The position numbers and the translations under genes are program-made. The notes under the pieces are model-generated. The model searched no databases. It worked only from the letters and a program-made list of their open reading frames with translations, and had not been told where the DNA came from. A DNA stretch of 64,000 nucleotides from Candidatus Limnocylindria bacterium (lineage in GTDB: Bacteria > Chloroflexota > Limnocylindria > QHBO01): contig DATBJR010000043.1 in assembly GCA_036556325.1 (NCBI GenBank), positions 3,285 through 67,284 on the forward strand, written 5' to 3'. Shown here piece by piece: positions 5,662 through 23,091 of the stretch. How positions within the stretch are numbered: the first letter of the stretch is position 1; every line of letters begins with the position of its first letter.

Positions 5662-6939
5662 CGTCGTCATCGACGCCGGCTGGCTTGCCTCACGACGCTG
5701 GTTCCGCCACAAGGCACGGCCGATCAGGTCCGTTCGCGTGAGCGACGCGGTGGCGCTGGGCCGTGGCTGCTCCTTGCTGGTGCTGGCGGCGCAGCTGGCC
5801 TCGGCGGAGGAGGTGCGCTACTTCGTGCCGGCGACCGGCTCCGGGGGCGAGCTGCACGAGCCGAACGACGGCGACGGCGGCTGGCGCGCCCTGCTGCGCT
5901 GGCTGGTCGCCGAGGATGGCACGGTGCCGTCCGACCACGGCACCTTCGTGGCGCACTCCGGGCCGGCCACCGAGCTGCTGCCGCCCGCCGGCGAGGTCAC
6001 GGGCCTCGAGGAGCGGCGGCTCGGTGCGCAGCAGAGCAACACCTCGGTGCGGCTCGGCGATCGGCTGCTGCTCAAGCTGTACCGGCTGCTCGAGGAAGGG
6101 ACCAACCCGGAGGTCGAGGTCTGCGCGTTCCTGAACGCGGCAGGCTTCCGGCACGTGCCGCCGGTCGCCGGCTGGATCGAATATCGCGCGGATGACGCGA
6201 GCGCAGCGGTCGCCATCGTGCAGGGCCTGGTCCCGGCCCGCGGCGATGCCTGGGAATGGATGCTTGACCGCCTGGCATCGGTCCCGCGCGGCCCGGCCGT
6301 GGCCCTGGCCGCGGTGGCGCAGCTGGGCGGCATCACGTCCGAGCTGCACGCCGCGCTGCGCTCCCGGCCCGACGCCGCGGGGTTCGAGGCGGGTCCGGCC
6401 ACGCCCGATGACCTGCGTGCCTGGCATGCCGGCGCCGAAGCGCAGCTGGCCGCGGCTCGGGCCATTCTGACCGGCGAGCCCGCCGAGCAGCTGGGCGACC
6501 TGGCGCCAGACATCTCGCACGCGCTGGCGGCCATCCCGGCGGCGTCCACCGCCATCCGGTCGCGGATCCACGGCGACTACCACCTCGGCCAGCTGCTGGC
6601 CACCGAGTCGGGCTTCGTGGTGATCGACTTCGAGGGAGAGCCGGCCCGTCCACTGGCCGAGCGCCGCCGGCCGGCCTCCCCACTGCGCGACGTGGCCGGC
6701 ATGCTCCGCAGCCTGGACTACGCCGCCCGCACGGCGGAGCGCAGCTCAGGCGGCGCGGACCTGTCGAGCTGGCTGGCCGACGCACGGGCCGCGTTCCTGG
6801 CGGCCTACGGTGAAGCCGCCGACGCCGCACTGCTGCGGGCATTCGAGGTCGAGAAAGCCTGCTACGAGGTGCGCTACGAGGCGAACCACCGGCCGGACTG
6901 GGTGTGGCTGCCCCTCCAGGCGCTCGAGCGGCTGGTGGC

Positions 6940-6943
<4 letters not shown>
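5642..6943 (+). CDS. mak: maltokinase (maltose 1-phosphate-forming; Pep2/Mak), aminoglycoside-phosphotransferase-like fold
   Basis: Sits immediately after treS, and overlaps it by 20 nt (11 nt if the ATG at 5651 is used). The kinase-like motif [17 protein letters not shown] is present. Its position between treS and the glgX/malQ genes fits the GlgE pathway. Confidence 0.8.
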
Positions 6944-9053
<2,110 letters not shown>

Positions 9054-9057
<4 letters not shown>

Positions 9058-10883
9058 CGGCGGCCCCGACGCCCGTCGAGGCTCGCTGGGTCGACGCCTG
9101 GCGGCGGCAGCGCACCACCAGCCCGGCGGCGCGCAAGGCGGTGCTCGACAGCATGCGGCTGGCGCCGGGCGAGCTGGAAGGCGCCGAGGCGTCCGTCGTG
9201 GTGGCGGCGCCGGGCGCGCAGCTGGCGAGGGCCGGTGCGGTGGTGACCGAGGACGGCGACGACCTCGGACACCTCACCCGCCTGCCGGATGACCTGCCAT
9301 TCGGCTACCACCGCCTGCGCCGCGGAACGGACGAGCAGCTCCTGCTGGTGGCGCCAGCTCGCTGTGCGCTACCGCCGGACCTGCGCACCTGGGGCTGGGC
9401 CGTCCAGCTGTACGCGGTCCGCAGCCGGGGCAGCTGGGGGATCGGCGACCTGGCTGACCTGCGTCGCCTGGGGACGTGGTCGCGCTCGCTGGGGGCCGGC
9501 GCCATGCTGGTCAGCCCACTGGCCGCGGCCAACCCCGGGCCGGACCCGGAGCCCAGCCCCTACTACCCCAGCTCGCGACGCTTTCGCAGCCCGCTGTACC
9601 TGGCGGTCGAGGCGGTGCCCGGGTACGCCGCGCTGGCCGCCGAGGTGGCGCCGTTGGTCGAGGAGGCGCGCCGGCTCAACGACGATCCGGCCATCGACCG
9701 CCCGGCGGTGCAGGCCGTCAAGCTGCGGGCGCTGGAGCGCATCTGGGCCAGGCCGCATCCGGGGCGGCATGCCGAGCTGGCACGGTTCCGCGCCGACGGC
9801 GGGGAGGCGCTGCGGCGCTGGGCGGTCTTTGCCGCGCTGTCCGAGCGGCATGGCCCCGGCTGGCAGCGCTGGCCGGCGAATCTGCGCGACCCCGACGGTG
9901 CGGCGGTGCGCCGCGCGGAGCGGGAGCTCGCGCATCGGACAGGGTTCCATGCGTGGCTCCAGCTGCTGCTCGCCGGACAGCTGGCCAGCGCCGGCGGCGG
10001 GCTGCGCCTGATCAGCGACCTGCCGCTCGGCTTCGACCCCGGCGGCTTCGACGCGTGGTGCTGGCAGCCGCTGCTGGCCGCGGCGAGCTTGGGTGCGCCG
10101 CCGGATCGGTTCAACCCGGGCGGCCAGCGCTGGGGGCTGCCGCCGTTCGTCCCGGCCCGGCTGCGCCTGGCGCGGTACGAGCCGTTCGTGGACACCATTC
10201 GGGCCGTGCTCAGCCACGGCGGCGGGCTGCGGATCGACCACGTCCTGGGCCTCTTTCGCCAGTGGTGGGTCCCCGACGGCGGCGCGCCGGAGGATGGTGC
10301 CTACGTCACCCAGCCCGCCGACGAGCTGCTGGCGGTGCTGGCCATCGAGAGCACGAGGACCGGGGCGATCGTCATCGGCGAAGACCTCGGCACGGTGCCG
10401 GTCGGCATCCGCCGCCGGCTGGCAGCCGCCAACGTCCTCTCGACCCGGCTCGCCTATTTCGAAGCACGGCCGGCGTCGCGCTGGCCACGGCGCTCGGTGG
10501 CGGCGGTCACCACCCACGACCTGCCGACCCTGGCCGGCACCTGGACGGGAGCCGATCTCGGCGACCAGGCCGCTGCCGGGCTCGACCCCGACCGTCGCGC
10601 CGCCGACCTGCTCCGGCGCCGCCTGGCGCGCAGCGGCTCGATCGCGGAGGATGCGGATCTGCCGGCAGCCCTGCTGGCCACCCATCGCGCGATCGCCGCG
10701 GCGCCCTCAGTCCTCGCCCTGGCCACCCTGGAGGATGCCGCCCGCGACCCACGCCGGCCAAACCTGCCCGGCACGTCGCGCGAGCAGCGCGACAACTGGT
10801 CGCGGGCGCTGCCGCTGCCGCTGGAGGAGCTGGAGCAGGACCCGCTGGTCGCACGCCTGGCGCAGGTGATGACCCGGGCCTAG
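9054..10883 (+). CDS. malQ: 4-alpha-glucanotransferase (amylomaltase) MalQ
   Basis: [10 protein letters not shown] motif (the typical FGIGDF equivalent) and GH77-like length. The GTG start overlaps the glgX stop (GTGA). Confidence 0.85.
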
Positions 10884-13081
10884 CCCTCGGGCAGCAGCAC
10901 CAGGGTGGCCAGTGGTGGCAGGGTCAGCGTGACCGATGCCGGCTGGCCGTGCCACGGCTCCGCATTGGCCTCGATGCCGCCCAGGTTCCCGAGGTTCGAG
11001 CCGCCGTAATGCTCCGAGTCGCTGTTCAGCGCCTCACGCCAGTGTCGCCGCCGGGGAACGCCGAGCCGGTACGCGCTGCGCGGCACCGGGGTGAGGTTCT
11101 GGACCACCACCGCCACCTCGTCACCGGCACGGCGGATCCAGCTGAACACCGACGACTCCACGTCGGAGGCATCGATCCAGGCGAAGGTCCCCGGTTCGGG
11201 GTCGGCCGCCCACAGCGCCGGGGTGGCGCGGTACAACGCCCCGAGGTCCGCCAGGAAGCGGCCGAAGCCGGCCCGCAGCGGCTCATCGGCCAGCGCGAAG
11301 TCGAGCGCCCGGTCGTGGCTCCACTCGGTCCAGGGCGCGAGCTCCGAGCCCATGAACAGCAGCTTCTTGCCCGGCTGGGTGTACATGTTGGCGATCAGGC
11401 AGCGCAGGTTGGCGAAGCGCTGCCACTCGTCGCCGGGCATCTTGGCCAGCAGCGAGCCCTTGCCGTGGACCACCTCGTCATGCGAGAGCGGCAGCACGAA
11501 GTGCTCGGTGTGCAGGTAGAGGGCCCGGAAGGTCAGCCTGTTGTGGTGGTAGCGCCGATGGACCGGATCCTCGTGGAAGTAGGCCAGCGTGTCGTGCATC
11601 CAGCCCATGTCCCATTTGAAGCCGAAGCCTAGCCCGCCCAGGTAGGTGGGTCGCGTGACGCCCGGGAAGGCGGTGGACTCCTCGGCGATGGTCACCACGC
11701 CCGGATGGCGGCCGTAGACCTTTTCGTTGACCTCGCGCAGGAAGGCAATCGCCTCCAGGTTCTCGTTGCCGCCGTACTGGTTGGGCTGCCACTCCCCGGC
11801 CTGGCGCGAGTAGTCGAGGTAGAGCATCGAGGCCACGGCGTCGACCCGCAGGCCGTCGATGTGGTAGCGGTCGCACCAGAACAGGGCGTTGGCCACCAGG
11901 AAGTTGCGCACCTCGGCGCGGCCGTAGTCGAAGATCAGCGTGCCCCAGTCAGGGTGCTGGCCGCGCTTGGGGTCGGCGTGCTCGTAGAGCGGCGTGCCAT
12001 CGAACTGGCGCAGGGCGAAATCGTCGTTGGGGAAATGCGCCGGCACCCAGTCGAGGATCACGCCGATCCCCGCCCGGTGCAGCGTGTCCACCAAGGCCCG
12101 GAAGTCGTCCGGCGTCCCGAAGCGCGCGGTCGGGGCGTAGTACCCGGTGACCTGGTAGCCCCACGAGCCGTCGAAGGGGTGCTCGGCCACCGGCAGCAGC
12201 TCGACGTGGGTGAAGCCGAAGCGCCGGCAGTGCTCCACCAGCCGCTCCCCGGCCTGGCGGTAGCCCAGCCAGGAGCCGTCGGGGTTCCGCATCCACGAGC
12301 CCAGGTGGACCTCGTAGATGGCCATCGGCTGGCGATACGGGTCGGTCACGGCCCGGCGCGCCATCCAGTCCGCATCGGTCCAGGCCTCGTCGGAGCCGAG
12401 GTCCCACACCCGGGACGCGGTCTCCGGCCGCACCTGCTGCGAGAAGGCCATGGGATCCGCCTTGACGCGCAGGCGCCCGTCGGCGCCGAGGACCTCGTAC
12501 TTGTAGAGCTCGCCGGCGCCGATCCCGGGGACGAATAGCTCCCACACGCCGGATGCTCCGAGCGAGCGCATCGGGAAGAGCCGTCCGTCCCAGCGGTCGA
12601 AGTCGCCGACCACCCGCACGCTGCGGGCGTTCGGCGCCCAGACGGCGAAGGCGACGCCTGCCACGCCGCTCGCGGTTCGGGGATGTGCGCCGAGCACCTC
12701 CCACAGCCGTTCGTGGCTGCCCTCGCCGATCAGGTGCAGGTCCAGCTCGCCAAGGGTCGGCAGGAAGCGATACGGGTCGCCCCGCTCCCAGGCGTTGCCG
12801 TCGGCGAAGCGGAAGCGGAGCCGGTACTCCGCTCCCGGGGCGAGCGGGGTGGCCGCCGCCCAGAGACCGCCACCCAGCGGTTCCATGGGCGTCGCCGCAT
12901 CACCGCCGAGCAGCTCCACGCCGGTCGCGTCGGGGTGGAAGGCACGGACCACGGACCCATGCTCGCCGCCGTGCAGTCCCAGGATCGCGTGCGGCTGGTG
13001 ATGCTCGCCGGCGGTCAGCCGGGCGGCCTCGGCGGCAGTCGGGCGCAGCAGGGGAGTGGTCGAGGGGGTGGGCCTAGCCAT
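10880..13081 (-). CDS. glgB: 1,4-alpha-glucan branching enzyme GlgB
   Basis: 733 aa with GH13_9 motifs ([54 protein letters not shown]). It is convergent with malQ and their 3' ends overlap slightly. Confidence 0.92.
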
Positions 13082-13901: not shown

Positions 13902-14957
13902 TTGGGACTCTTCGACGGCCTGCTCGGCATCCTCAGCCACGATGTTGGCATCGACCTTGGGACGGCGAACACGCTGGTCACGGTCCGGCACCGCGGCATC
14001 GTCATCAGCGAGCCAAGCGTGGTGGCCATGGACACCCGCAGCAAGCGGGTCCTGGCCATCGGCGCGGAGGCCAAGCGGATGGTCGGTCGCACACCTGCCA
14101 ACATCGTCGCCATCCGGCCGCTGCGCGACGGCGTCATCAGCGACTTCGACGTCACCGAGCAGATGATCCGCTACTTCATCGCCAAGGTGCACGAGCGCTT
14201 CGCCCAGATCCGCCGGCCACGCGTCCTGGTCGGCATCCCGTCAGGGGTGACCGAGGTCGAGAAGCGTGCCGTGCGCGACGCGACCGTGAACGCCGGTGCG
14301 CGGTGGGCCCGTCTCATCGAAGAGCCCATGGCGGCCGCAATCGGCGCCGGGCTGCCGGTGTCGGAGCCGTCCGGCAGCCTGATCGTGGACATCGGCGGCG
14401 GGACGACCGAGGTGGCGGTCATCAGCCTGGGCGGCATCGTGGTCAGCCGCAGCGTGCGCATCGGTGGCGACGAGATGGACACCGACATCGTCAGCTTCGC
14501 GCGCCGGGAGTACAACCTGCTCATGGGCGAGCGCACCGCCGAGGAGATCAAGATCGCCGTCGGCTCTGCGTACCCAATCGAGGACAGCCGCACCGTCACG
14601 TTCCGCGGTCGCGACCTGCTCACCGGGCTGCCGCGCAGCGTGGAGGTGGGCAGCGATCAGATCCGCGAGGCGCTGGAGCCGTCCGTGGCGCAGATCATCG
14701 ACGCCATCAAGGAGACGATCGAGGAGACGCCGCCGGAGCTGGTGGCCGACATCATGGACCAGGGCATCGTCCTGGCCGGCGGCGGCGCGCTGCTCGCGGG
14801 GCTGGACAAGCGGGTGGCGGAGGCGACCCAGATGCCAGTCCACATCGCCGACGATCCGCTGACCTGCGTGGTGCGTGGCACCGGGCGCGTCCTGGAGGAC
14901 CTGGATGCCCTGGAGCGGGTCCTGGTCAGCGAGCAGTACACCCGCGCGCCGCGCTGA
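13902..14957 (+). CDS. mreB: rod shape-determining actin homolog MreB
   Basis: The GIDLGTANTLV start, an actin-fold phosphate loop and the IVDIGGGTTEVAVISLGG motif. Full length is 351 aa. Confidence 0.95.
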   Translation: MGLFDGLLGILSHDVGIDLGTANTLVTVRHRGIVISEPSVVAMDTRSKRVLAIGAEAKRMVGRTPANIVAIRPLRDGVISDFDVTEQMIRYFIAKVHERFAQIRRPRVLVGIPSGVTEVEKRAVRDATVNAGARWARLIEEPMAAAIGAGLPVSEPSGSLIVDIGGGTTEVAVISLGGIVVSRSVRIGGDEMDTDIVSFARREYNLLMGERTAEEIKIAVGSAYPIEDSRTVTFRGRDLLTGLPRSVEVGSDQIREALEPSVAQIIDAIKETIEETPPELVADIMDQGIVLAGGGALLAGLDKRVAEATQMPVHIADDPLTCVVRGTGRVLEDLDALERVLVSEQYTRAPR

Positions 14958-14984
14958 CGGGCGCGGCGGCATCGGCTCGAACCG

Positions 14985-15839
14985 ATGATCGGCGGACCGC
15001 ATCGCCGCAGCCGGAATGGGCTGTGGTTCGCGGCGTTCACCATCGTCTCGCTGCTGCTCCTGCTCGCGTCGCAGACGGAGGCCGCCCTGACCCTGCAGCG
15101 GGTGAGCGCCCGCGCGCTGGACCCGATCCGCCAGACGATCGGCGGCATCGGCGCGGGGATCGCTGGCGTCTTCGGGACCATCGGCGAGATCGACCGCCTC
15201 CGCAGCGAGAACGATGACCTGCGCAGCAGCCTGGCCGGGGCGCAGCAGCGGATCGCCGAGCTGCAGGAGGCGGCGGCTGAGAATGCGGAGCTGCGTGGGC
15301 TGCTGGGCCTGACCCAGTCGCTCGAGATGGACCTGCTGCCAGTGCGCGTCATCAGCCGCGATCCGTCCAACTTCACCTGGGACATCGGCATCGACGCCGG
15401 CACGGATGACGGCGTGGCGGTGGGCATGCCGGTGGTCGGTGCGGCCCAGGGGGCCGGCGCCCTGGCCGGCACGGTCGTCTCGGTCGGGGCCGATACGGCC
15501 ACCGTGCGCCTGATCGTGGACACCCGTTCCAGCGTCGTCGCGCTCGACCAGCGATCCCGCGCTTTGGGGCTGGTCCAGGGACAGCTCGGCGGGCAGCTGG
15601 TCATGGTCCAGGTCGATATCACCGACTCGCTGCAGGAGGGCGACGGCATCGTCAGTGCCGGCCTGGAGCTGTCGCGAGGTGCTGCGCGGAGCCCGTACCC
15701 GAAGGGCCTGCTCATCGGTGCCGTGCAGGCCGTGCAGCGGGACAGCAATGCCCTGACCCAGACCGGCTTCGTGCGACCCGCGCTGGACTTCCGGCAGCTC
15801 GATCGGCTCCTGGTCGTCCGCTCCTATCGGCAGGACTGA
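14985..15839 (+). CDS. mreC: rod shape-determining protein MreC
   Basis: Directly downstream of mreB. It has an N-terminal TM helix, a coiled-coil region (RLRSENDDLRS...ELQEAAAENAELR) and a C-terminal beta-rich domain. Confidence 0.8.
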   Translation: MIGGPHRRSRNGLWFAAFTIVSLLLLLASQTEAALTLQRVSARALDPIRQTIGGIGAGIAGVFGTIGEIDRLRSENDDLRSSLAGAQQRIAELQEAAAENAELRGLLGLTQSLEMDLLPVRVISRDPSNFTWDIGIDAGTDDGVAVGMPVVGAAQGAGALAGTVVSVGADTATVRLIVDTRSSVVALDQRSRALGLVQGQLGGQLVMVQVDITDSLQEGDGIVSAGLELSRGAARSPYPKGLLIGAVQAVQRDSNALTQTGFVRPALDFRQLDRLLVVRSYRQD

Positions 15840-15961
15840 CCCCGAATCCCTGACGCCGCGCCAGCGGTGCGTGGGCGCAACTGGCCCCAACGTCTGCCGC
15901 CGTCGCGACCATCGGGGCATGGAGGGCGATCCGCCGGGCCCGCACGCTTGGCGGCACACCC

Positions 15962-17731
15962 GTGCCCATGCCGTGCTCAGGGGACCGCGCATTGCCAGAC
16001 CGACTCCGCGCCATCGCCACCGCAGCCCTCACCGTCGCGCTGAGCTGGACGCTGCTGGGGGCCACTCCGGCGGCTGCGGCCGATCCGCTCAAGGTGGTGA
16101 TCATCGTGGGGCCGACCGGCTCGTTGACCGCCAGCTACCGGTCAGCCGGGAATGCCATCGCCGAGGTCGCCGTCGCGGCCGGCGCGGAGGTCGTCAAGGT
16201 CTACTCCCCGCGGGCGACCTGGGCCAGAGTCCGCCAGGCGGTGGAGGGCGCCAACGTCGTCATCTACCTGGGCCACGGCAACGGCTATCCCAGCCCGTAC
16301 AGCAGCACCGAGTGGACGGACAGGGTCAACGGCTGGGGCCTGAACCGCACCACCACCGGTGGCGACTCGGATGACTGGTCGAAGCACATGGTGTACTGCG
16401 GCCAGAAGGCCCTGGTGGGCACGCTGACGTCGGCGGACGGGGCGGCCCAGTGGAAGTACTGCGGTGGCGCGAGGGGCACCCAGGGCATTCACCCCGCCGC
16501 CAGCTGGGTGATGATCTACAACAGGGCCTGCTACACGCCCGGCGCCAGCGAGGGCTGGGACGTGAAGGCGACCCAGTCGGTCGCCTTCAAGCGCGTCAGC
16601 AACTACAGCTACCCGGCCCTCAAGGTCGGTGGCGGCGCCTACTTCGCCACCGACATGTATCGCGGCGCGGAGGGGCTGGTCGACCTGGTCCTGGCGCACC
16701 GCGACTGGACGTTCGGCGCCATCGCCGAGGCGGCGCCCGGCTACGACCTCGCGGCCCAGAGCCGGATGGAGCACCCGGACCTCCCGGGCCGCCAGCTGTG
16801 GATCCAGCGCACGGAGAACGGCATGGGCACCGACTACTGGTATGCGTATGCCGGCGACCCGAACCTGACCCCGTCCGGCGCGATGGGCGTCTATGTTCCG
16901 CCGCCGGCGCCGCAGGTGACTGCCGTGTCGCCGGCAGCCGGCACCTCCGACGCCACGACCGACACTGCCCTGACCGCCGCGTTCGACCTGCCGGTGACCG
17001 GCGTCAACGCCGCCTCGTTCCTGGTCCGCGACGCCTTCGGGCTGACCATGTCGGGCGTGGTGAGCTACAGCGCCGCCACGCGCACCGCCACCTTCACGCC
17101 GAGCACCCCGCTCGAGGCCGGGCTGCCGTACACCGCCAGCCTGACCAAGGGCATCAGGAGCCGCCTGGGGGCTCGCCTGGCACGGTACTCGTGGTCCTTC
17201 AGCGTGGCGGGTCCGACGGGCGCCGCGGTCACCCTGTACGACGAGCCGCAGGCGCTGGTGCTCGAGCCTGGCACCAACACCCGCTACCTGTTCACGCGCG
17301 ACGGCGTCCTGCGCGGGGAGCAGACGGCCACGCTCCTCGACGCCGCGCAGGTCACCACGTCCATCCGTCGCACGCTGCCGAACCAGTCGGGCACCTGGTT
17401 CTACGTCGACGCCGGCACCTGGGCGCACTACTGGCTGCGCGAGTCGAGCGCGGTCCACCTGGCCGATGCCGTGGCCGCGGCCACGACTGGCGGCGAGGAC
17501 GCGTTCTCGCCGGCGGCCCCGGTGCGCATCAAGCGCGGCACCCACACCGGGTACGCCTTCGACGGCGGGACGATGACGGCCCACAAGACGCTGACCCTGA
17601 CCGGCGGCCGTCGGGCTTACGCCGGCGAGCTGCGGAGCCTGCCCGGCCAGACCGGCCTCTGGTTCCACATCACTGCGGGCAGCTGGTCCGGCCGCTGGCT
17701 GCGCGCCTCGGACGTCGTCTACCTCGAGTAG
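15962..17731 (+). CDS. secreted multidomain protein: N-terminal domain with caspase-like His/Cys dyad context, one Big_5/SbsA-type Ig-like domain, two C-terminal copies of a novel ~80-aa Trp-rich repeat
   Basis: Signal peptide ending AAAADP. A hydrophobic strand + HG (ANVVIYLGHGNG, His at 16274-16276) and a hydrophobic strand + AC (SWVMIYNRACYTPG, Cys at 16529-16531). The Ig-like segment is VTAVSPAAG...TASLTKG. C-terminal repeats cover roughly 17222-17476 and 17504-17728. Confidence 0.75.
   Translation: MPMPCSGDRALPDRLRAIATAALTVALSWTLLGATPAAAADPLKVVIIVGPTGSLTASYRSAGNAIAEVAVAAGAEVVKVYSPRATWARVRQAVEGANVVIYLGHGNGYPSPYSSTEWTDRVNGWGLNRTTTGGDSDDWSKHMVYCGQKALVGTLTSADGAAQWKYCGGARGTQGIHPAASWVMIYNRACYTPGASEGWDVKATQSVAFKRVSNYSYPALKVGGGAYFATDMYRGAEGLVDLVLAHRDWTFGAIAEAAPGYDLAAQSRMEHPDLPGRQLWIQRTENGMGTDYWYAYAGDPNLTPSGAMGVYVPPPAPQVTAVSPAAGTSDATTDTALTAAFDLPVTGVNAASFLVRDAFGLTMSGVVSYSAATRTATFTPSTPLEAGLPYTASLTKGIRSRLGARLARYSWSFSVAGPTGAAVTLYDEPQALVLEPGTNTRYLFTRDGVLRGEQTATLLDAAQVTTSIRRTLPNQSGTWFYVDAGTWAHYWLRESSAVHLADAVAAATTGGEDAFSPAAPVRIKRGTHTGYAFDGGTMTAHKTLTLTGGRRAYAGELRSLPGQTGLWFHITAGSWSGRWLRASDVVYLE
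17222..17728 (+). repeat. protein-level tandem repeat module (2 copies) of a ~80-aa Trp-rich domain, consensus approx YDP-R-L-LRRG-HTGY-F---G-----------------G-W--V-SG-LAGYWLRES--VHL
   Basis: Seen directly when the C-termini of the three consecutive secreted proteins are aligned by eye. It has conserved RxGxHTGY and G(Y/R)W(L/V)RE(S/T) blocks. Confidence 0.7.
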
Positions 17732-17851
17732 CCCTGGCCCCGGGGGGATCGCCGCTGGCCCTTCCGTACCATGGTTCGGAGCGGCTGGGATCGGTAGGGT
17801 GGAGACCGCTGCGGTCATACGCGACCGCGGCTGCGATCCCGACCCCGCGAG

Positions 17852-20800
17852 GTGACCGACCCCATGCGCCGCCTGCCAGCCGCCATCCTCGGCCTCCTGC
17901 TCACCCTCGGCTCGATGCCGACCGCCGCCGTCCGCGCTGCTGATCCCTCCCCGGCCTCATCCGTCTCGCCGGAGCCGCTGGCGACGGGTGCGGTCCTCAC
18001 CGCCGACGGACGCGTCCTGCCACCGATGCCGGCCGGGATGGAGCAGACGTCGGTCCACGCCGAGATGCTCGCCGCCCATGCCGCCGATGTCGTGCGCTTC
18101 ACGCCGGGCGGCGCCCCATCGGTGCTGCTCACGCCCACCGGCAAGATCCAGATGGCGGGGGCCGCGGTGGCGCCGGATGGCGGAGCCGTCAGCGCGCAGG
18201 TCTCCGCCGCCGGGCTGCCGAACGGGCTGCGCAAGGAGGTGTTCGGCTTCCTGCCGTACTGGATGCTGTCCGGCTCGGCACTGTCGTCGATGAACTACCA
18301 CCTGGTCTCGACCATCGCCTACTTCAGCGTCAACGCCAAGATGACCGGCTACCTGGCCAAGGGCACCAGCACCAACCCCACGGCCGGCTGGGCCGGTTGG
18401 AAGAGCTCGGCCATGACCGGGGTGCTCAACCGGGCCCATGAGCAGGGGGTGCGGGTGGTGCTGACCGTCACGATGATGGCCTGGGACAGCGCCTCCGCCA
18501 GCCGGCAGGCGTCGCTGCTGCAGACGGCCAGCGCGCGCAGCCGGTTGGTGAACCAGATCGTATCGGCCGTGCGCGACCGCGGCGCCGATGGCGTCAACCT
18601 GGACTTCGAGCCGCTGGCGACGAGCCTCCGCGACGAGTACGTCAGCTTCGTCAAGCAGCTGAAGCGCGGGCTCGCCAACGCCGGCGTGGGCGATTACCTG
18701 ACGGTCAGCGTGATGGCCAGCGCAGCGACCTGGGCGACCGGCTACGACGTGGCGGGGCTGACGGCCGCCGACGCCGCCGACGCCCTGTTCGTGATGGGCT
18801 ACGACTACAACTGGTCCGGCTCGTCGCGCGCAGGCGGCGTGGCCCCGATCCAGAGCCCGTTCACGATCGACGTGGCCGGCACCATGGCCGACTTCCTGAC
18901 CCAGACCAGCGGCTCGAAGCTGATCTGGGGCGTGCCGTACTACGGCCGGACCTGGCCGACGAAGGCCAAGACCCTCAACTCGGCCACGCTCGGTGGCGGG
19001 TCGAAGGCGTACACCTACACCGGCCACCTGGCCGAGGCCGGGCGCTACGGCCGGCGCTGGGACGACGTGGGCAAGGTGCCGTGGTATCGCCACTGGGATG
19101 GCGCGGCCGGTCACTGGGTGCAGGGCTACTACGACGATTCGCATTCGCTGGGCGTGAAGTACGACCTCGTCAACTCGCGCGGCCTCAAGGGCACCGGCAT
19201 GTGGACCCTGCTCATGGACCAGGGCCGCGACGAGCTCTGGCGCCTGCTGGCGCGCAAGTTCGTGAACGACACGGCGCCGCCGGTCGGCGGCATCAGCCTG
19301 CTGCCGAGCTCGGTCGACGGGGAGGCCTTCAAGGTCAGCTGGCGCGCCCAGGACTACGCGTCGGGGGTATCGACCTACGGCGTGCAGTGGCGACGCCCGG
19401 GCGGCGTCTGGCAGCAGTGGCTGAGCAACACGAAGGCGACGTCGGCCTGGTTCACCGGGACCGCCGGTCGCACCTACCAGTTCCGGATGCGCGCCATCGA
19501 CGCCAAGGGCAACGTCCAGCCCTGGACGAGTCCTCCGGCGACGCCGACGTCGCTGACCCCGGCCGCCTTCGGCAAGGTGGTGGCCGCCACGCTCAACGTG
19601 CGGACCGGGCCCGGGACGGGCTACGGCATCATCGACAGCGCCGCCGCTGGCGACCTGGTGTACGTCCTCGAAGGGCCCGTGAGCTCCGGCGGATACGAGT
19701 GGTATCGGGTCCAGTACGGCTTCACCGAATGGCCCAGCGCCGACTACCCGACCATCGCCTGGATGGCCGGCAGCTCGTCCGGCACGCCGATGATCGCGCC
19801 GGCGCAGGCGCCAGCCGTGACCAGGCTGCGCCCCTTCGTGTCCCAGGGCAGCCGAACCGCCGCATTCAGCCCGAATGGAGACGGCGTGCAGGACAGCGCC
19901 ACCATCGGTTTCAACCTGGCGGGGGCCACGAGCGCCACCCGGCTCGAGATCGTCGATGACGGCGGGGCGGTCGTCCGCTCCATTGGCCTCGGCGCACGTT
20001 CGGCCGGCGCCAACCAGGCGAGCTGGAACGGGCAGCTGGCATCCGGCGATCCGGCGCCCGACGGCCGTTACCTGGCCCGCATCGTGGCGACCGATGGAAG
20101 CGGCACGCTGCACGTCGGCCCGAGCGGCACCCTCAGCGCCGCCGCCCTGAAGCGCTGGGGCATCACCGTAGATGACGCTGCACCCGGCGTGGACGCCACG
20201 CCCGGGTCCGGCACATCGATGGTGCCGGCCATGGCCAAGGTCGAGGTCGCCTTCACCGAGCCGATGGCGGGGCTGGACGGCGCCGCGGTCCAGCTCACGG
20301 CTGATGGCGTGCCCCTGGCCGCGCACGCGTACGTCCGCGCCGACGACCGCAGCGTCCTGCTCCGAGCGGACGATCCGCTGCCCACCGGCGCTGCCATCGG
20401 CGTGGTCCTGGACGCGTCGGTGCGGGACGCGGCCGGCAATCGGCCGGCGATGACCGCCTGGACCTTCAGCACGGCGCCCGGCCGGGCCTACGACCCGGCA
20501 CGACACGGCACGCTGCGGCGCGGCACGCGGACCGGGTACGCCATCGGCGCCGATGGCGACCTGCTCCTCCGCCACACCGCGGGGCTGTCCGCGGCGCGGG
20601 ACGTCACGCTCAGCCAGCGCGCCGTGCTCCCGAACCTGCCGGGTCGCTGGCTGTATGCCAGGAGCGGCCCCCTCGCCGGCCGCTGGCTGCGAGAGACGGC
20701 CAACCAGCACGTCGACGGGTTCGTCTCGCGCACGACCTATGACACGGCCCAGCGGATCAAGCTGCGCGCGGGCGATCACCTCGGCTACCGCTTCACGCTC

Positions 20801-21208
20801 GACGGTCGCGTGCTGCGCACCAAGCGGCTCAGCCTGCGCAGGGGCGTGCTTGCCGCCTCGTCGGTGCGCGCCGTGATCAATGGTGTGACCTGGTGGCGGC
20901 TGTCTGGCGGGGCGCTGGACGGCTACTGGGTCGAGCAATCCGCGGCGGTGCATCGCCGCGGCGCCGTGGGCAGGCTGCAGTTCGCCGCTCCGCCGCGCGT
21001 CGACGTCGCCGCCGGCACGTACACGGCGTACAGCTACGACTGGCTGGGACGGGTCCGCGGCTCGGTGACGGCGAAGGTCGGCAGCAGCACCGGTGTCCGC
21101 GTCGCGGCCTGGGCCGTCATCAACGGCACGCCCCGCTATCTCGTCAGCAGCGGGCCCTGGGCGGGCATGTGGCTGGCGGAGACCTCCGACACCCGGCTGC
21201 ACGTCTGA
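17852..21208 (+). CDS. secreted GH18 (chitinase/peptidoglycan-glycosidase-like) multidomain protein: GH18 - FN3 - SH3b - FlgD_Ig-like - Big_5 Ig-like - 3x novel C-terminal repeat
   Basis: Signal peptide AVRAADP. The GH18 core FGFLPYW...DGVNLDFEP...MWTLLMD sits at about 18233-19219, with a DGxNxDFE variant of the DGxDxDWE motif at 18587-18610. FN3-like about 19277-19537. SH3b-like (ATLNVRTGPGTGYGII...YEWYRVQY) about 19565-19771. The FSPNGDGVQD FlgD_Ig-like motif lies within about 19817-20116. A Big_5 domain at about 20177-20479. Three repeat copies at about 20483-21205. Confidence 0.85.
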   Translation: MTDPMRRLPAAILGLLLTLGSMPTAAVRAADPSPASSVSPEPLATGAVLTADGRVLPPMPAGMEQTSVHAEMLAAHAADVVRFTPGGAPSVLLTPTGKIQMAGAAVAPDGGAVSAQVSAAGLPNGLRKEVFGFLPYWMLSGSALSSMNYHLVSTIAYFSVNAKMTGYLAKGTSTNPTAGWAGWKSSAMTGVLNRAHEQGVRVVLTVTMMAWDSASASRQASLLQTASARSRLVNQIVSAVRDRGADGVNLDFEPLATSLRDEYVSFVKQLKRGLANAGVGDYLTVSVMASAATWATGYDVAGLTAADAADALFVMGYDYNWSGSSRAGGVAPIQSPFTIDVAGTMADFLTQTSGSKLIWGVPYYGRTWPTKAKTLNSATLGGGSKAYTYTGHLAEAGRYGRRWDDVGKVPWYRHWDGAAGHWVQGYYDDSHSLGVKYDLVNSRGLKGTGMWTLLMDQGRDELWRLLARKFVNDTAPPVGGISLLPSSVDGEAFKVSWRAQDYASGVSTYGVQWRRPGGVWQQWLSNTKATSAWFTGTAGRTYQFRMRAIDAKGNVQPWTSPPATPTSLTPAAFGKVVAATLNVRTGPGTGYGIIDSAAAGDLVYVLEGPVSSGGYEWYRVQYGFTEWPSADYPTIAWMAGSSSGTPMIAPAQAPAVTRLRPFVSQGSRTAAFSPNGDGVQDSATIGFNLAGATSATRLEIVDDGGAVVRSIGLGARSAGANQASWNGQLASGDPAPDGRYLARIVATDGSGTLHVGPSGTLSAAALKRWGITVDDAAPGVDATPGSGTSMVPAMAKVEVAFTEPMAGLDGAAVQLTADGVPLAAHAYVRADDRSVLLRADDPLPTGAAIGVVLDASVRDAAGNRPAMTAWTFSTAPGRAYDPARHGTLRRGTRTGYAIGADGDLLLRHTAGLSAARDVTLSQRAVLPNLPGRWLYARSGPLAGRWLRETANQHVDGFVSRTTYDTAQRIKLRAGDHLGYRFTLDGRVLRTKRLSLRRGVLAASSVRAVINGVTWWRLSGGALDGYWVEQSAAVHRRGAVGRLQFAAPPRVDVAAGTYTAYSYDWLGRVRGSVTAKVGSSTGVRVAAWAVINGTPRYLVSSGPWAGMWLAETSDTRLHV
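20483..21205 (+). repeat. same ~80-aa repeat module, 3 tandem copies at the C-terminus of the GH18 protein
   Basis: The copies begin RAYDPARHGTLRRGTRTGYAI, TTYDTAQRIKLRAGDHLGYRF and LQFAAPPRVDVAAGTYTAYSY. Each ends in a G-x-W-[LV]-x-E block. Confidence 0.7.
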
Positions 21209-21321
21209 CGCAGGCACCCCATCGGTACCAGACCGATTAGGTCATGCCCCGGCCGCATGGTGCTCCGTAGGGTGAGCCCGAACTCATCCGACTGACCACT
21301 GCCAGAGGGGGACTCATCCAG

Positions 21322-22323
21322 ATGCCCCAGTCCACGGGACGCGGACGCCTCGTCGCCGCACTCACCGCCCTGATGCTGCTGGCGGGCGCCGTCGCCGCCT
21401 CGCCAGCCACCACCCTCGCCTACGGTGGCGACGGGCTGCGGGCAGCCGCCAACCGGCTCCGCGCCGACGCCCATGTCCCGCCGGTGGCCGGCACCGCGCT
21501 GCTCGACGACATCGCCAGCCACCGCGCCAGCCAGCTGGTCCGCCTTGACCGCCTGGAGCACGACATGGACTACGTCACCCATCGGCTCAACGACGCCGGG
21601 GTGTGCTGGAAGCAGGCGGGCGAGATCCTGGCCTGGGAGAGGGGTGCCTCCGATTACGACTACCGGCGCACCGGGCAGGCCTGGTTCGATTCCGACACGC
21701 ACCGGGACATCATGCTGGGCGCCGACTACAACGCCGCGGGTGGCGCCTGGCGCAGCGCGCCGCACCTGCAGCATTACTCGGTCATGGTCCTGGTGGAGCT
21801 GTGTGGCACGACCACCAGCTCGGTCAGCATCAGCGCCCTCAGGCCGCGCCGGACCTACGACCCGGACCGGCCGCTCGTCCTGCGCCGCGGCCGGCATACC
21901 GGCTACAAGCTGAGCGCGGAGGGATTCGTCGTGTCGCGCCGGACCGTGTCGTATGCCCACCGTGCCACGCGAACCACCTCCGGACGCGTCTACGTCGGCA
22001 ACACGGCCTACCTGAAGGTCAGCAGCGGGAAGCTGCGGGGCTACTGGGTTCGGGAGAGCAGCCACACCCACGTCAGGGGCATGACCCAGTACCGCGAGTT
22101 CCAATCAGCGCGGGCCATCTCGGTGGCGGCCGGCCGCCACCGCGGCCATCGCTTCGATTGGCTGGGACGCGTCACCGACTCCCGCGGCCGCATCTATCGC
22201 CACGCCACCCTGACCGCCGCCACCGCCCGCGCGGTGATCAACGGGCGCGTCTACCTGCGCTTCGCGAACGGCTGGCTGGCCGGACACTGGGTGCGGGACA
22301 CCGGCCACATCACCTTCAGGTAG
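21322..22323 (+). CDS. secreted CAP/SCP (YkwD-like) domain protein with two C-terminal copies of the novel repeat
   Basis: Signal peptide. A YkwD-like signature (AWFDSDTHRDIMLGADYNAAGGAW) is present. Repeat copies are at about 21847-22080 and 22081-22320. Confidence 0.7.
   Translation: MPQSTGRGRLVAALTALMLLAGAVAASPATTLAYGGDGLRAAANRLRADAHVPPVAGTALLDDIASHRASQLVRLDRLEHDMDYVTHRLNDAGVCWKQAGEILAWERGASDYDYRRTGQAWFDSDTHRDIMLGADYNAAGGAWRSAPHLQHYSVMVLVELCGTTTSSVSISALRPRRTYDPDRPLVLRRGRHTGYKLSAEGFVVSRRTVSYAHRATRTTSGRVYVGNTAYLKVSSGKLRGYWVRESSHTHVRGMTQYREFQSARAISVAAGRHRGHRFDWLGRVTDSRGRIYRHATLTAATARAVINGRVYLRFANGWLAGHWVRDTGHITFR
21847..22320 (+). repeat. same ~80-aa repeat module, 2 tandem copies at the C-terminus of the CAP-domain protein
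   Basis: RTYDPDRPLVLRRGRHTGYKL...GYWVRESSHTHV and ISVAAGRHRGHRFDWLG...GHWVRDTGHITF. Confidence 0.7.
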
Positions 22324-22359
22324 GGGCCACGGTCCCCACGCGTCGTAGAATCGGCGCCG

Positions 22360-23091
22360 ATGTCTATCGCCGTTGCCCGCCGTCCCGATGGACGCGCCAC
22401 CACCCAGCTCCGGCCGGTCAAGATCGTGACCGACTACCTGAAGTTCGCCGAGGGTTCGGTTCTGATCCGGGTCGGGGATACGCGCGTCATCTGCGCGGTC
22501 ACCATCGAGGATCGGGTGCCTGGCTGGCTACGCGGCAAGGGCACCGGCTGGGTCACCGCCGAGTACAGCATGCTGCCGCGCGCCGGGACCGAGCGCAGCC
22601 AGCGTGAGGCGCACACCGGTCGCATCGGCGGGCGGACGCACGAGATCCAGCGCCTGATCGGACGGTCGCTGCGCGGGGTCATGGACCTGGCGAAGCTCGG
22701 CGAACGCACCGTCACCGTCGACTGCGACGTGATCCAGGCGGATGGCGGCACGCGTACGGCCAGCATCACCGGCGCCTACGTGGCGCTGGCCCGCGCACTG
22801 AAGAAGTACGGCATGGCGCACCTGCTGACCGGGCAGGTGGCCGCCGTCAGCGTCGGCATGTCGGGCGGCACGCCGCTGCTGGATCTGAACTACGCGGAAG
22901 ACTCGACGGCCGACGTCGACTTCAACGTGGTGATGACCGATGACGAGCGATTCGTCGAGGTGCAGGGCACGGCTGAGCACCGCGCCTTCGACCGCGCGCA
23001 GATGAACGCGATGATCGACCTGGCGGCCGCCGGCATCCGCCAGCTGTTCGAGCTGCAGCGCACGGCCATCGACGCACCGGCTGCCGAGTGA
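22360..23091 (+). CDS. rph: ribonuclease PH
   Basis: Whole-length match to the RNase PH family ([37 protein letters not shown]). Confidence 0.95.

Follow-up and report, generated by a model that had tools for sequence, protein, structure and literature searches.

The window analysed here is a 64,000-nucleotide stretch of contig DATBJR010000043.1 from a member of the Candidatus Limnocylindria, an uncultured class of Chloroflexota with a G+C content of about 69% (PMC10608941); the G+C content of the window is 70-74%. Directly downstream of mreB and mreC it carries an open reading frame (ORF) on the forward strand, 15962-17731, the product of which is called X in the following. The codon-position bias of the frame is that of a real gene, with a G+C content at third codon positions (GC3) of 0.93. 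The 589 amino acids of X are laid out, in order, as a predicted signal peptide, a predicted caspase-fold domain, an Ig-like domain of the Big_5 type and two repeats of about 80 amino acids (Table 1). Given the caspase-like fold and motifs of the domain, its place on a secreted protein and a gene flanked by cell-shape genes and a glycosidase gene, X is probably a new peptidase of the cell envelope.

Inspection of the N-terminus gave a basic stretch, a hydrophobic stretch rich in Ala and Leu, and then AAAA followed by D; the domain of residues 41-300 begins right behind this signal-peptide-like part. The domain was unannotated, since Pfam recognised nothing in X besides Big_5 at residues 316-414, the NCBIfam match was at 19 bits, and sequence searches of the Protein Data Bank (PDB) with the X protein and with two family profiles returned no relevant match. 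The NCBIfam candidate, NF052336 'peptidoglycan hydrolase', was tried and rejected: it scored 19.3 bits against a cut-off of 500, was lost when the signal peptide was left out and was found in 2 of 95 distant members of the family. The apparent locus tag of NF052336 gave no match in the literature.

Relatives of the domain were counted as 793 among clusters at 90% identity and, at 50% identity, as 1123 representatives with E <= 1e-3 (849 at E <= 1e-10). The family has no Pfam or NCBIfam model of its own, and literature searches found no description of it. Functional names on its members are rare ('FlgD', 'cell wall-binding', 'S-layer family', 'Ig-like domain-containing') and refer to the C-terminal modules, and the cluster names of distant members are uninformative ('hypothetical', 'FlgD', 'cell wall-binding'). 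Homologues carry the domain fused to Big_5, SLH, CWB2, SH3_3, FlgD_ig or PKD modules, which are extracellular, envelope-associated architectures. All members seen belong to uncultured lineages. Their source names, where given, are mostly Candidatus Limnocylindria or Limnocylindrales, or metagenome-assembled genomes (MAGs) of Chloroflexota or Chloroflexia, with a minority labelled Dormibacteraeota, Methylomirabilota, Steroidobacteraceae, Acidimicrobiales or Marmoricola. When species-representative genomes were scanned, at least 503 matching coding stretches turned up, and the best 80 of these (loci L001-L080) came almost entirely from MAGs of Limnocylindria or Chloroflexota, with identities of up to 82%.

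An earlier note on this DNA, made from the letters alone, had pointed to a strand-HG and a strand-AC arrangement about 85 residues apart as the hallmark of clan CD peptidases. The two motifs were located at VVIYLGHGNG (residues 99-108), which contains His105, and at WVMIYNRACYTPG (residues 182-194), which contains Cys190. The spacing of His105 and Cys190 is 85 residues, and each lies directly behind a predicted strand. Conservation was counted over 145 representatives of the family at 50% identity, the denominators being the representatives aligned at the position in question. G104, H105, G106 and G108 were invariant (142/142), and P110, Y113, G124-x-G126-L127, Tyr191 and Gly194 were nearly so. 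Position 190 was Cys in 120 of 132 representatives, His in 11 and Pro in one, and position 148, within a conserved [YCF]-G-E motif, was Glu in 135 of 141. Because they are conserved across representatives at 50% identity, the His and Cys motifs are no chance match. Among close homologues His105 was kept in all 119, and position 190 was His in 70 and Cys in 50 of 120, a mix that differs from the family-wide picture because two clades were sampled. The conservation in orthologs on which the earlier note had staked its proposal thus held in full for His105, which is invariant, and in part for Cys190, which dominates in the family but is replaced by His in one clade.

A model of the domain was built with AlphaFold2 (AF2) from 104 homologues, residue 1 of the model being residue 38 of the protein. 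It reached a predicted local distance difference test score (pLDDT) of 94.1 and a predicted template modelling score (pTM) of 0.93. With b for strands, a for helices and positions in model numbering, its elements are b1(7-12)-a1-b2(39-44)-a2-b3(62-67)-[His68]-insertion-b4(146-152)-[Cys153]-a-b5(189-193), and behind b5 come helices and a small sheet at the C-terminal end. The strand at 62-67 is immediately followed by His105, and the strand at 146-152 by Cys190. In the model the order of elements is that expected of the caspase-hemoglobinase fold, with the putative dyad at the C-terminal ends of hydrophobic strands. When the model was compared with the PDB by Foldseek, separase came first with an E of 0.011, and the weak list behind it held caspase-11, -6, -4 and -1 and legumain, together with a CHAT anti-sigma factor and flavodoxins.

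Both the Cys-type and the His-type proteins of Limnocylindria carry an insertion of about 60 residues between b3 and b4, which appears to contain a disulfide. Cys146 and Cys167 lie within it; they are mostly absent or gapped across the wider family, including the compact subfamily, and are probably joined by a disulfide, specific to the insertion-bearing subfamily, which would fasten the insertion. Because of this insertion a compact paralogue was modelled as well, the P0221 domain, which is about 35% identical to X over 186 aligning residues. Its model had a pLDDT of 97.7. Foldseek placed the SAVED-CHAT protease 8tl0 first (E 1.1e-4 and 1.6e-4, probability 1.0, TMq 0.45, 209 columns), and separase 5fc3 (E 5.5e-3), the Craspase TPR-CHAT structures 8d9f and 7xsq (E 5.5e-3 and 5.9e-3) and flavodoxins (E about 7e-3, with shorter alignments of about 160 columns) followed. 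The earlier note had looked to structure prediction for a caspase-like alpha/beta sandwich: both predicted models are confident alpha/beta/alpha sandwiches, their best Foldseek matches are clan CD proteases, and the likeness to the caspase sandwich is found in the models at the level of the core. The order of His before Cys and the His-Gly motif of clan CD are likewise present (VVIYLG-H105-G and WVMIYNRA-C190), and the putative catalytic His is conserved across the family. The reading of the domain as clan CD, as the note proposed it, is therefore supported by models, Foldseek matches and conservation at the level of fold and motif.

Sequence profiles point the same way. The enzyme models that matched the domain repeatedly were all from clan CD (C50, C25, CHAT and PorU), every one of them below its threshold. 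Peptidase_C50 matched 39 of 105 members (best E 1.3e-3) and Peptidase_C25 matched 24 of them; among 95 distant full-length members C25 matched 17 (best E 8.1e-4), and C50 and CHAT were found there too. The NCBIfam model of the PorU sortase, a C25 enzyme, matched three members. On trimmed domains the C50 match covers b1-b3 and stops at GHG.G (profile 273-332), and some matches to CHAT (profile 102-228) and C25 (profile 188-300) span both motifs. The best C25 score, among ten trimmed homologue domains, was 18.2 bits (E 1.6e-3) against the threshold of 23 bits of PF01364, to which the window protein gave no match. CHAT (PF12770) has a threshold of 24 bits, and the compact paralogue scored 14.4 bits (E 0.027). 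An hhalign comparison with human legumain (C13) was not significant (E 0.2, 20 columns). A comparison of the family with a small C25 alignment, seeded from a fragment of RgpB and made up of 13 mostly partial proteins, gave an E of 1e-3 at a probability of 21%, which is suggestive only, with the Cys side out of register; Y[SD]P.AT...G...Y.GHG and W.[VA][FY].GDP are blocks common to both. Zn-dependent wall hydrolases (Amidase_2/3, M14/M15/M23) were found neither in the Pfam and NCBIfam scans nor among the top 50 Foldseek matches. The earlier note had been unable to match the domain to a specific family, and this was confirmed. Since it is not C11, C13, C14, C25, C50 or CHAT by the models of these families, the domain is best described as a new family within the caspase-like clan, and relatedness to clan CD at the level of the clan is likely from structure and profiles together.

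The best structural matches, those of the compact paralogue model, are CHAT proteases (the SAVED-CHAT protease of CBASS/type III CRISPR signalling and TPR-CHAT/Csx29 of Craspase). They share with X the order of His before Cys on adjacent strands, and the sub-threshold match to PF12770 spans both motifs. CHAT proteases, however, are cytoplasmic, effector-regulated proteins of defence and signalling, whereas X is secreted, has Ig-like and presumed wall-binding repeats and lacks their SAVED or TPR partners. Separase (MEROPS C50, PF03568) gave the commonest sub-threshold profile match and stands among the top Foldseek matches of both models, but it is a protease of the eukaryotic nucleus and has very large regulatory domains, the X family aligns with it by sequence in the His half only, and the profile scores are 10-15 bits against the gathering threshold of 27.8 bits. 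Gingipain and PorU (MEROPS C25, PF01364; NF033707 for the PorU sortase of the type IX secretion system, T9SS) are, like X, secreted bacterial proteins with Ig-like C-terminal domains, and they share locally the two blocks given above and AC. Gingipain structures were not among the top 50 Foldseek matches of the X models; X differs from these proteins in its insertion between b3 and b4 and has no T9SS context. Legumain and GPI8 (MEROPS C13) are represented by legumain structures among the weak Foldseek matches, and the b1 block of X, VVIVAGS.G..NYRH, resembles KVVIIVGPTG..T..YR of legumain, which is eukaryote-centred and has a different P1 pocket. A functional analogue only is Cwp84 of C. difficile, a cysteine protease that CWB2 repeats anchor to the wall; some homologues of X have CWB2 or SLH modules. 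Cwp84 has a papain fold (clan CA, family C1; PMC12445089) and therefore is not homologous to X.

The replacement of Cys190 by His defines two types of protein. The Cys type has the motif ..[NK]ACY[AT]PG[AE].E., the His type ..QAHYAPGFGER. The window protein and all of its nearest relatives (at least 57% identity) are of the Cys type. On a neighbour-joining tree of the sampled sequences, Fitch parsimony needs one change only from Cys to His, and the His type is therefore taken as a single derived clade with Cys as the ancestral state. This clade, to which L026, L028, L031, L035-L046 and other loci belong, keeps H105, C146, E148, C167, E197 and R211. Its gene stands in the same position behind mreBC at 16 loci from 16 species representatives, 15 of which also have the GH18 gene downstream, and in at least five genomes the Cys-type gene of the mreBC locus is accompanied by an extra His-type paralogue elsewhere. 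The conserved residues, the retained locus and the extra paralogues argue that the His clade does not consist of decaying copies.

The surroundings of X were compared over the 80 related loci, and three further loci (L081-L083) and positions 13902-23091 of the window were also covered. Behind X lie genes for a GH18-family protein of 1118 amino acids, for a secreted protein with a CAP/SCP domain and for RNase PH, and no copy of mreD follows mreC at this locus. The order mreB-mreC-X-GH18-CAP-RNase PH recurs widely in Limnocylindria, with glgB upstream on the opposite strand; mreB-mreC lies upstream of X in 54 of the 80 loci, and a GH18 gene downstream in 62. Three of four look-ups of compact paralogues gave arrays of mreB-mreC-(dTDP-rhamnose genes)-X, two of them with GH18 and all three with a glycosyltransferase, and the fourth gave an unrelated context. 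A scan for promoters and terminators between mreC, X and the GH18 gene was uninformative. In the 1118-amino-acid neighbour the Pfam model matches just part of the GH18 domain (profile 79-317), and the substrate of this protein may be chitin-like or the glycan of peptidoglycan.

One repeat of about 80 amino acids, for which Pfam has no model, makes up the C-terminal end of X (two copies), of the GH18 protein (three copies) and of the CAP protein (two copies). Pairwise BLASTP among the three proteins gave E values down to 1e-13, and a Big_5 domain stands just before the repeats in both X and the GH18 protein. The C-terminal repeat module that, in the earlier note, might deliver X to the wall is thus real. 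The shared repeat, which may be a new envelope-targeting module, points to delivery of all three proteins to one envelope structure.

Table 1. Features of the X locus, in positions of the window; residue numbers are those of the protein named
Feature	Positions	Strand	Evidence
mreB (13902-14957) and mreC (14985-15839), directly upstream of X	13902-15839	+	Pfam MreB_Mbl 4e-145, MreC 1e-32; synteny
Gene X, 589-aa secreted multidomain protein	15962-17731	+	ORF list; GC3; Pfam Big_5 only
X residues 1-40, predicted Sec-type signal peptide	15962-16081	+	By-eye reading; homologues with same start
X residues 41-300, predicted caspase-hemoglobinase-like alpha/beta/alpha domain, unclassified family	16082-16861	+	AF2 model, Foldseek, family search
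GHGNG motif (residues 104-108) behind strand b3; putative catalytic His105 (codon 16274-16276)	16271-16285	+	Invariance (see text); strand position
Cys146 and Cys167, within b3-b4 insertion	16397-16399, 16460-16462	+	Invariant in 121/121 close homologues
Gln148, where the family has Glu	16403-16405	+	Q in window protein and L001
ACYTPG motif (residues 189-194) behind strand b4; putative nucleophile Cys190 (codon 16529-16531)	16526-16543	+	Cys or His counts (see text)
Glu197 and Arg211, conserved family-wide behind the Cys motif, candidate substrate-pocket residues	16550-16594	+	E 130/133, R 125/132
X residues 316-414, Big_5 bacterial Ig-like domain	16907-17203	+	Pfam E 1.4e-13
X residues 421-505 and 506-589, two ~80-aa repeats without Pfam model, presumed envelope-targeting module	17222-17728	+	Self and cross BLASTP
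GH18-family protein, 1118 aa (GH18, fn3, SH3_3, FlgD_ig, Big_5), downstream of X	17852-21208	+	Pfam; repeats; conserved neighbour
GH18 protein residues 880-1116, three repeat copies	~20489-21199	+	BLASTP
CAP/SCP-domain secreted protein	21322-22323	+	Pfam CAP 1.6e-4; repeats
CAP protein residues 179-251 and 260-325, repeats	~21856-22296	+	BLASTP

Taken as a whole, these data are best explained if the domain is a cysteine peptidase with a caspase-hemoglobinase fold, like those of clan CD, from an unclassified family and held on the envelope; we place moderate confidence in this reading together with the following mechanism. X would be exported by its Sec-type signal peptide and held on the envelope by Big_5 and the two repeats that it has in common with the GH18 and CAP neighbours. 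His105 would serve as general base/acid for the thiol of Cys190, which would attack the peptide bond, and the P1 side chain may be taken up in a pocket lined by the conserved Arg60, Glu197, Arg211 and position 148, where Glu is usual and X has Gln. Arg60, past b1, occupies a position at which S1 residues are found in legumain and caspases. During growth guided by MreB, X may act on the cell wall together with the GH18 enzyme, and its substrate is most likely in the wall because of its partners. Its likeliest action would then be the cleavage of peptidoglycan stem peptides or cross-links, or alternatively the maturation of wall-associated proteins; cleavage of peptidoglycan by X is speculative.

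Several observations weigh against this reading. The model of the window domain gave no Foldseek match in the PDB below an E of 0.01, the flavodoxins score almost like separase, and the TM-scores are 0.46 at most, below 0.5, so that the similarity is limited to the core. No clan CD family model reaches its curated threshold on the X family, and the best clan CD score of the window domain, that of C50, is 10.8 bits (E 0.27). The window protein has Gln148 in place of a near-invariant Glu. A clade with His for Cys at the shared locus, with the other residues kept, is contrary to what is expected of a thiol nucleophile, which should not be exchangeable for His, and this clade lacks an explanation under the thiol model. 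We know of no clan CD enzyme that cleaves peptidoglycan. Finally, the conserved gene order is weak evidence of function, since the whole block from glgB to RNase PH keeps its order in this class.

X could instead be an active clan CD peptidase that acts on proteins and not on peptidoglycan, maturing or anchoring surface proteins as Cwp84 does with SlpA or as PorU does as a sortase-like transpeptidase, with the GH18 and CAP neighbours as candidate substrates. Several clan CD enzymes are indeed transpeptidases (PorU, GPI8, legumain ligases), X family members give weak matches to the C25 and PorU models, and the SLH and CWB2 fusions resemble those of surface-protein proteases. All characterised enzymes of the clan have proteins or peptides as substrates, with L-residues at P1 (PMC12445089). 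The analysis turned up no candidate for a cleavage motif or a substrate, however, and the conserved neighbours are mreBC, GH18 and wall-polysaccharide genes instead of an S-layer gene; we regard this alternative as unlikely.

The exchange of Cys for His suggests a different chemistry. If residue 190 is no nucleophile, a metal such as Zn could be bound on a caspase- or flavodoxin-like scaffold by His105 and Cys/His190, with Glu197 or Glu148 as possible further ligands, and X would be a hydrolase that depends on this metal, such as an amidase or peptidase of peptidoglycan. Cys and His are typically exchanged as ligands of metals, as in the Zn sites of Amidase_2/PGRP enzymes, and the two residues interchange here at position 190 between clades of the same locus, in which H105, E148, E197 and R211 stay. 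The weak NCBIfam match to NF052336 would fit as well, but it vanishes without the signal peptide and is seen in only 2 of 95 distant members. The change to His happened once in the sample while the rest of the family has Cys, no metallohydrolase is among the top 50 Foldseek matches of either model, and no metallopeptidase or amidase hidden Markov model matches the domain. With one exchange only and no similarity to metallohydrolases, the metal site ranks lower and is quite improbable. A non-catalytic pseudo-peptidase of caspase fold, which binds wall material or regulates the GH18 hydrolase in the way that dead LytM factors activate amidases, is very improbable. In its favour, the His clade persists and diversifies, Gln148 of the window protein stands where Glu is conserved, and the sequence shows neither a prodomain nor any other sign of zymogen control. 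Against it, more than 1000 clusters at 50% identity keep the GHG.G and [AL]C motifs and several polar residues almost without change, the pattern of a selected active site.

If the cysteine peptidase reading is correct and the enzyme is active, the X family would be an addition to the clan of caspases, gingipains and separase, with more than 1100 clusters at 50% identity. Its fold and chemistry would be familiar, and the notable part would be the biological setting and the clade with His for Cys. What is distinctive in the family is the predicted location on the envelope, the pairing with GH18 and mreBC, the b3-b4 insertion and the His at the position of the nucleophile. The adjacency to mreBC and GH18 suggests a part in wall remodelling, which, if true, would give a handle on wall growth in little-known monoderm bacteria. 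The strongest form of the proposal, that X founds a new clan CD family and is the first caspase-fold enzyme for wall growth, a peptidase of peptidoglycan or another wall polymer acting with GH18 near MreB/MreC in monoderm Chloroflexota, with one clade made independent of the thiol by its His, is rather unlikely to hold in all its parts. The natural swap of Cys for His, which leaves the remaining site as it is, already provides a test of the chemistry possible on a caspase scaffold.

Just upstream of the mreBC block, at 6904-13081, the window also carries a set of glycogen/alpha-glucan genes, with an isoamylase-like gene, a GH77 4-alpha-glucanotransferase gene and glgB on the minus strand.

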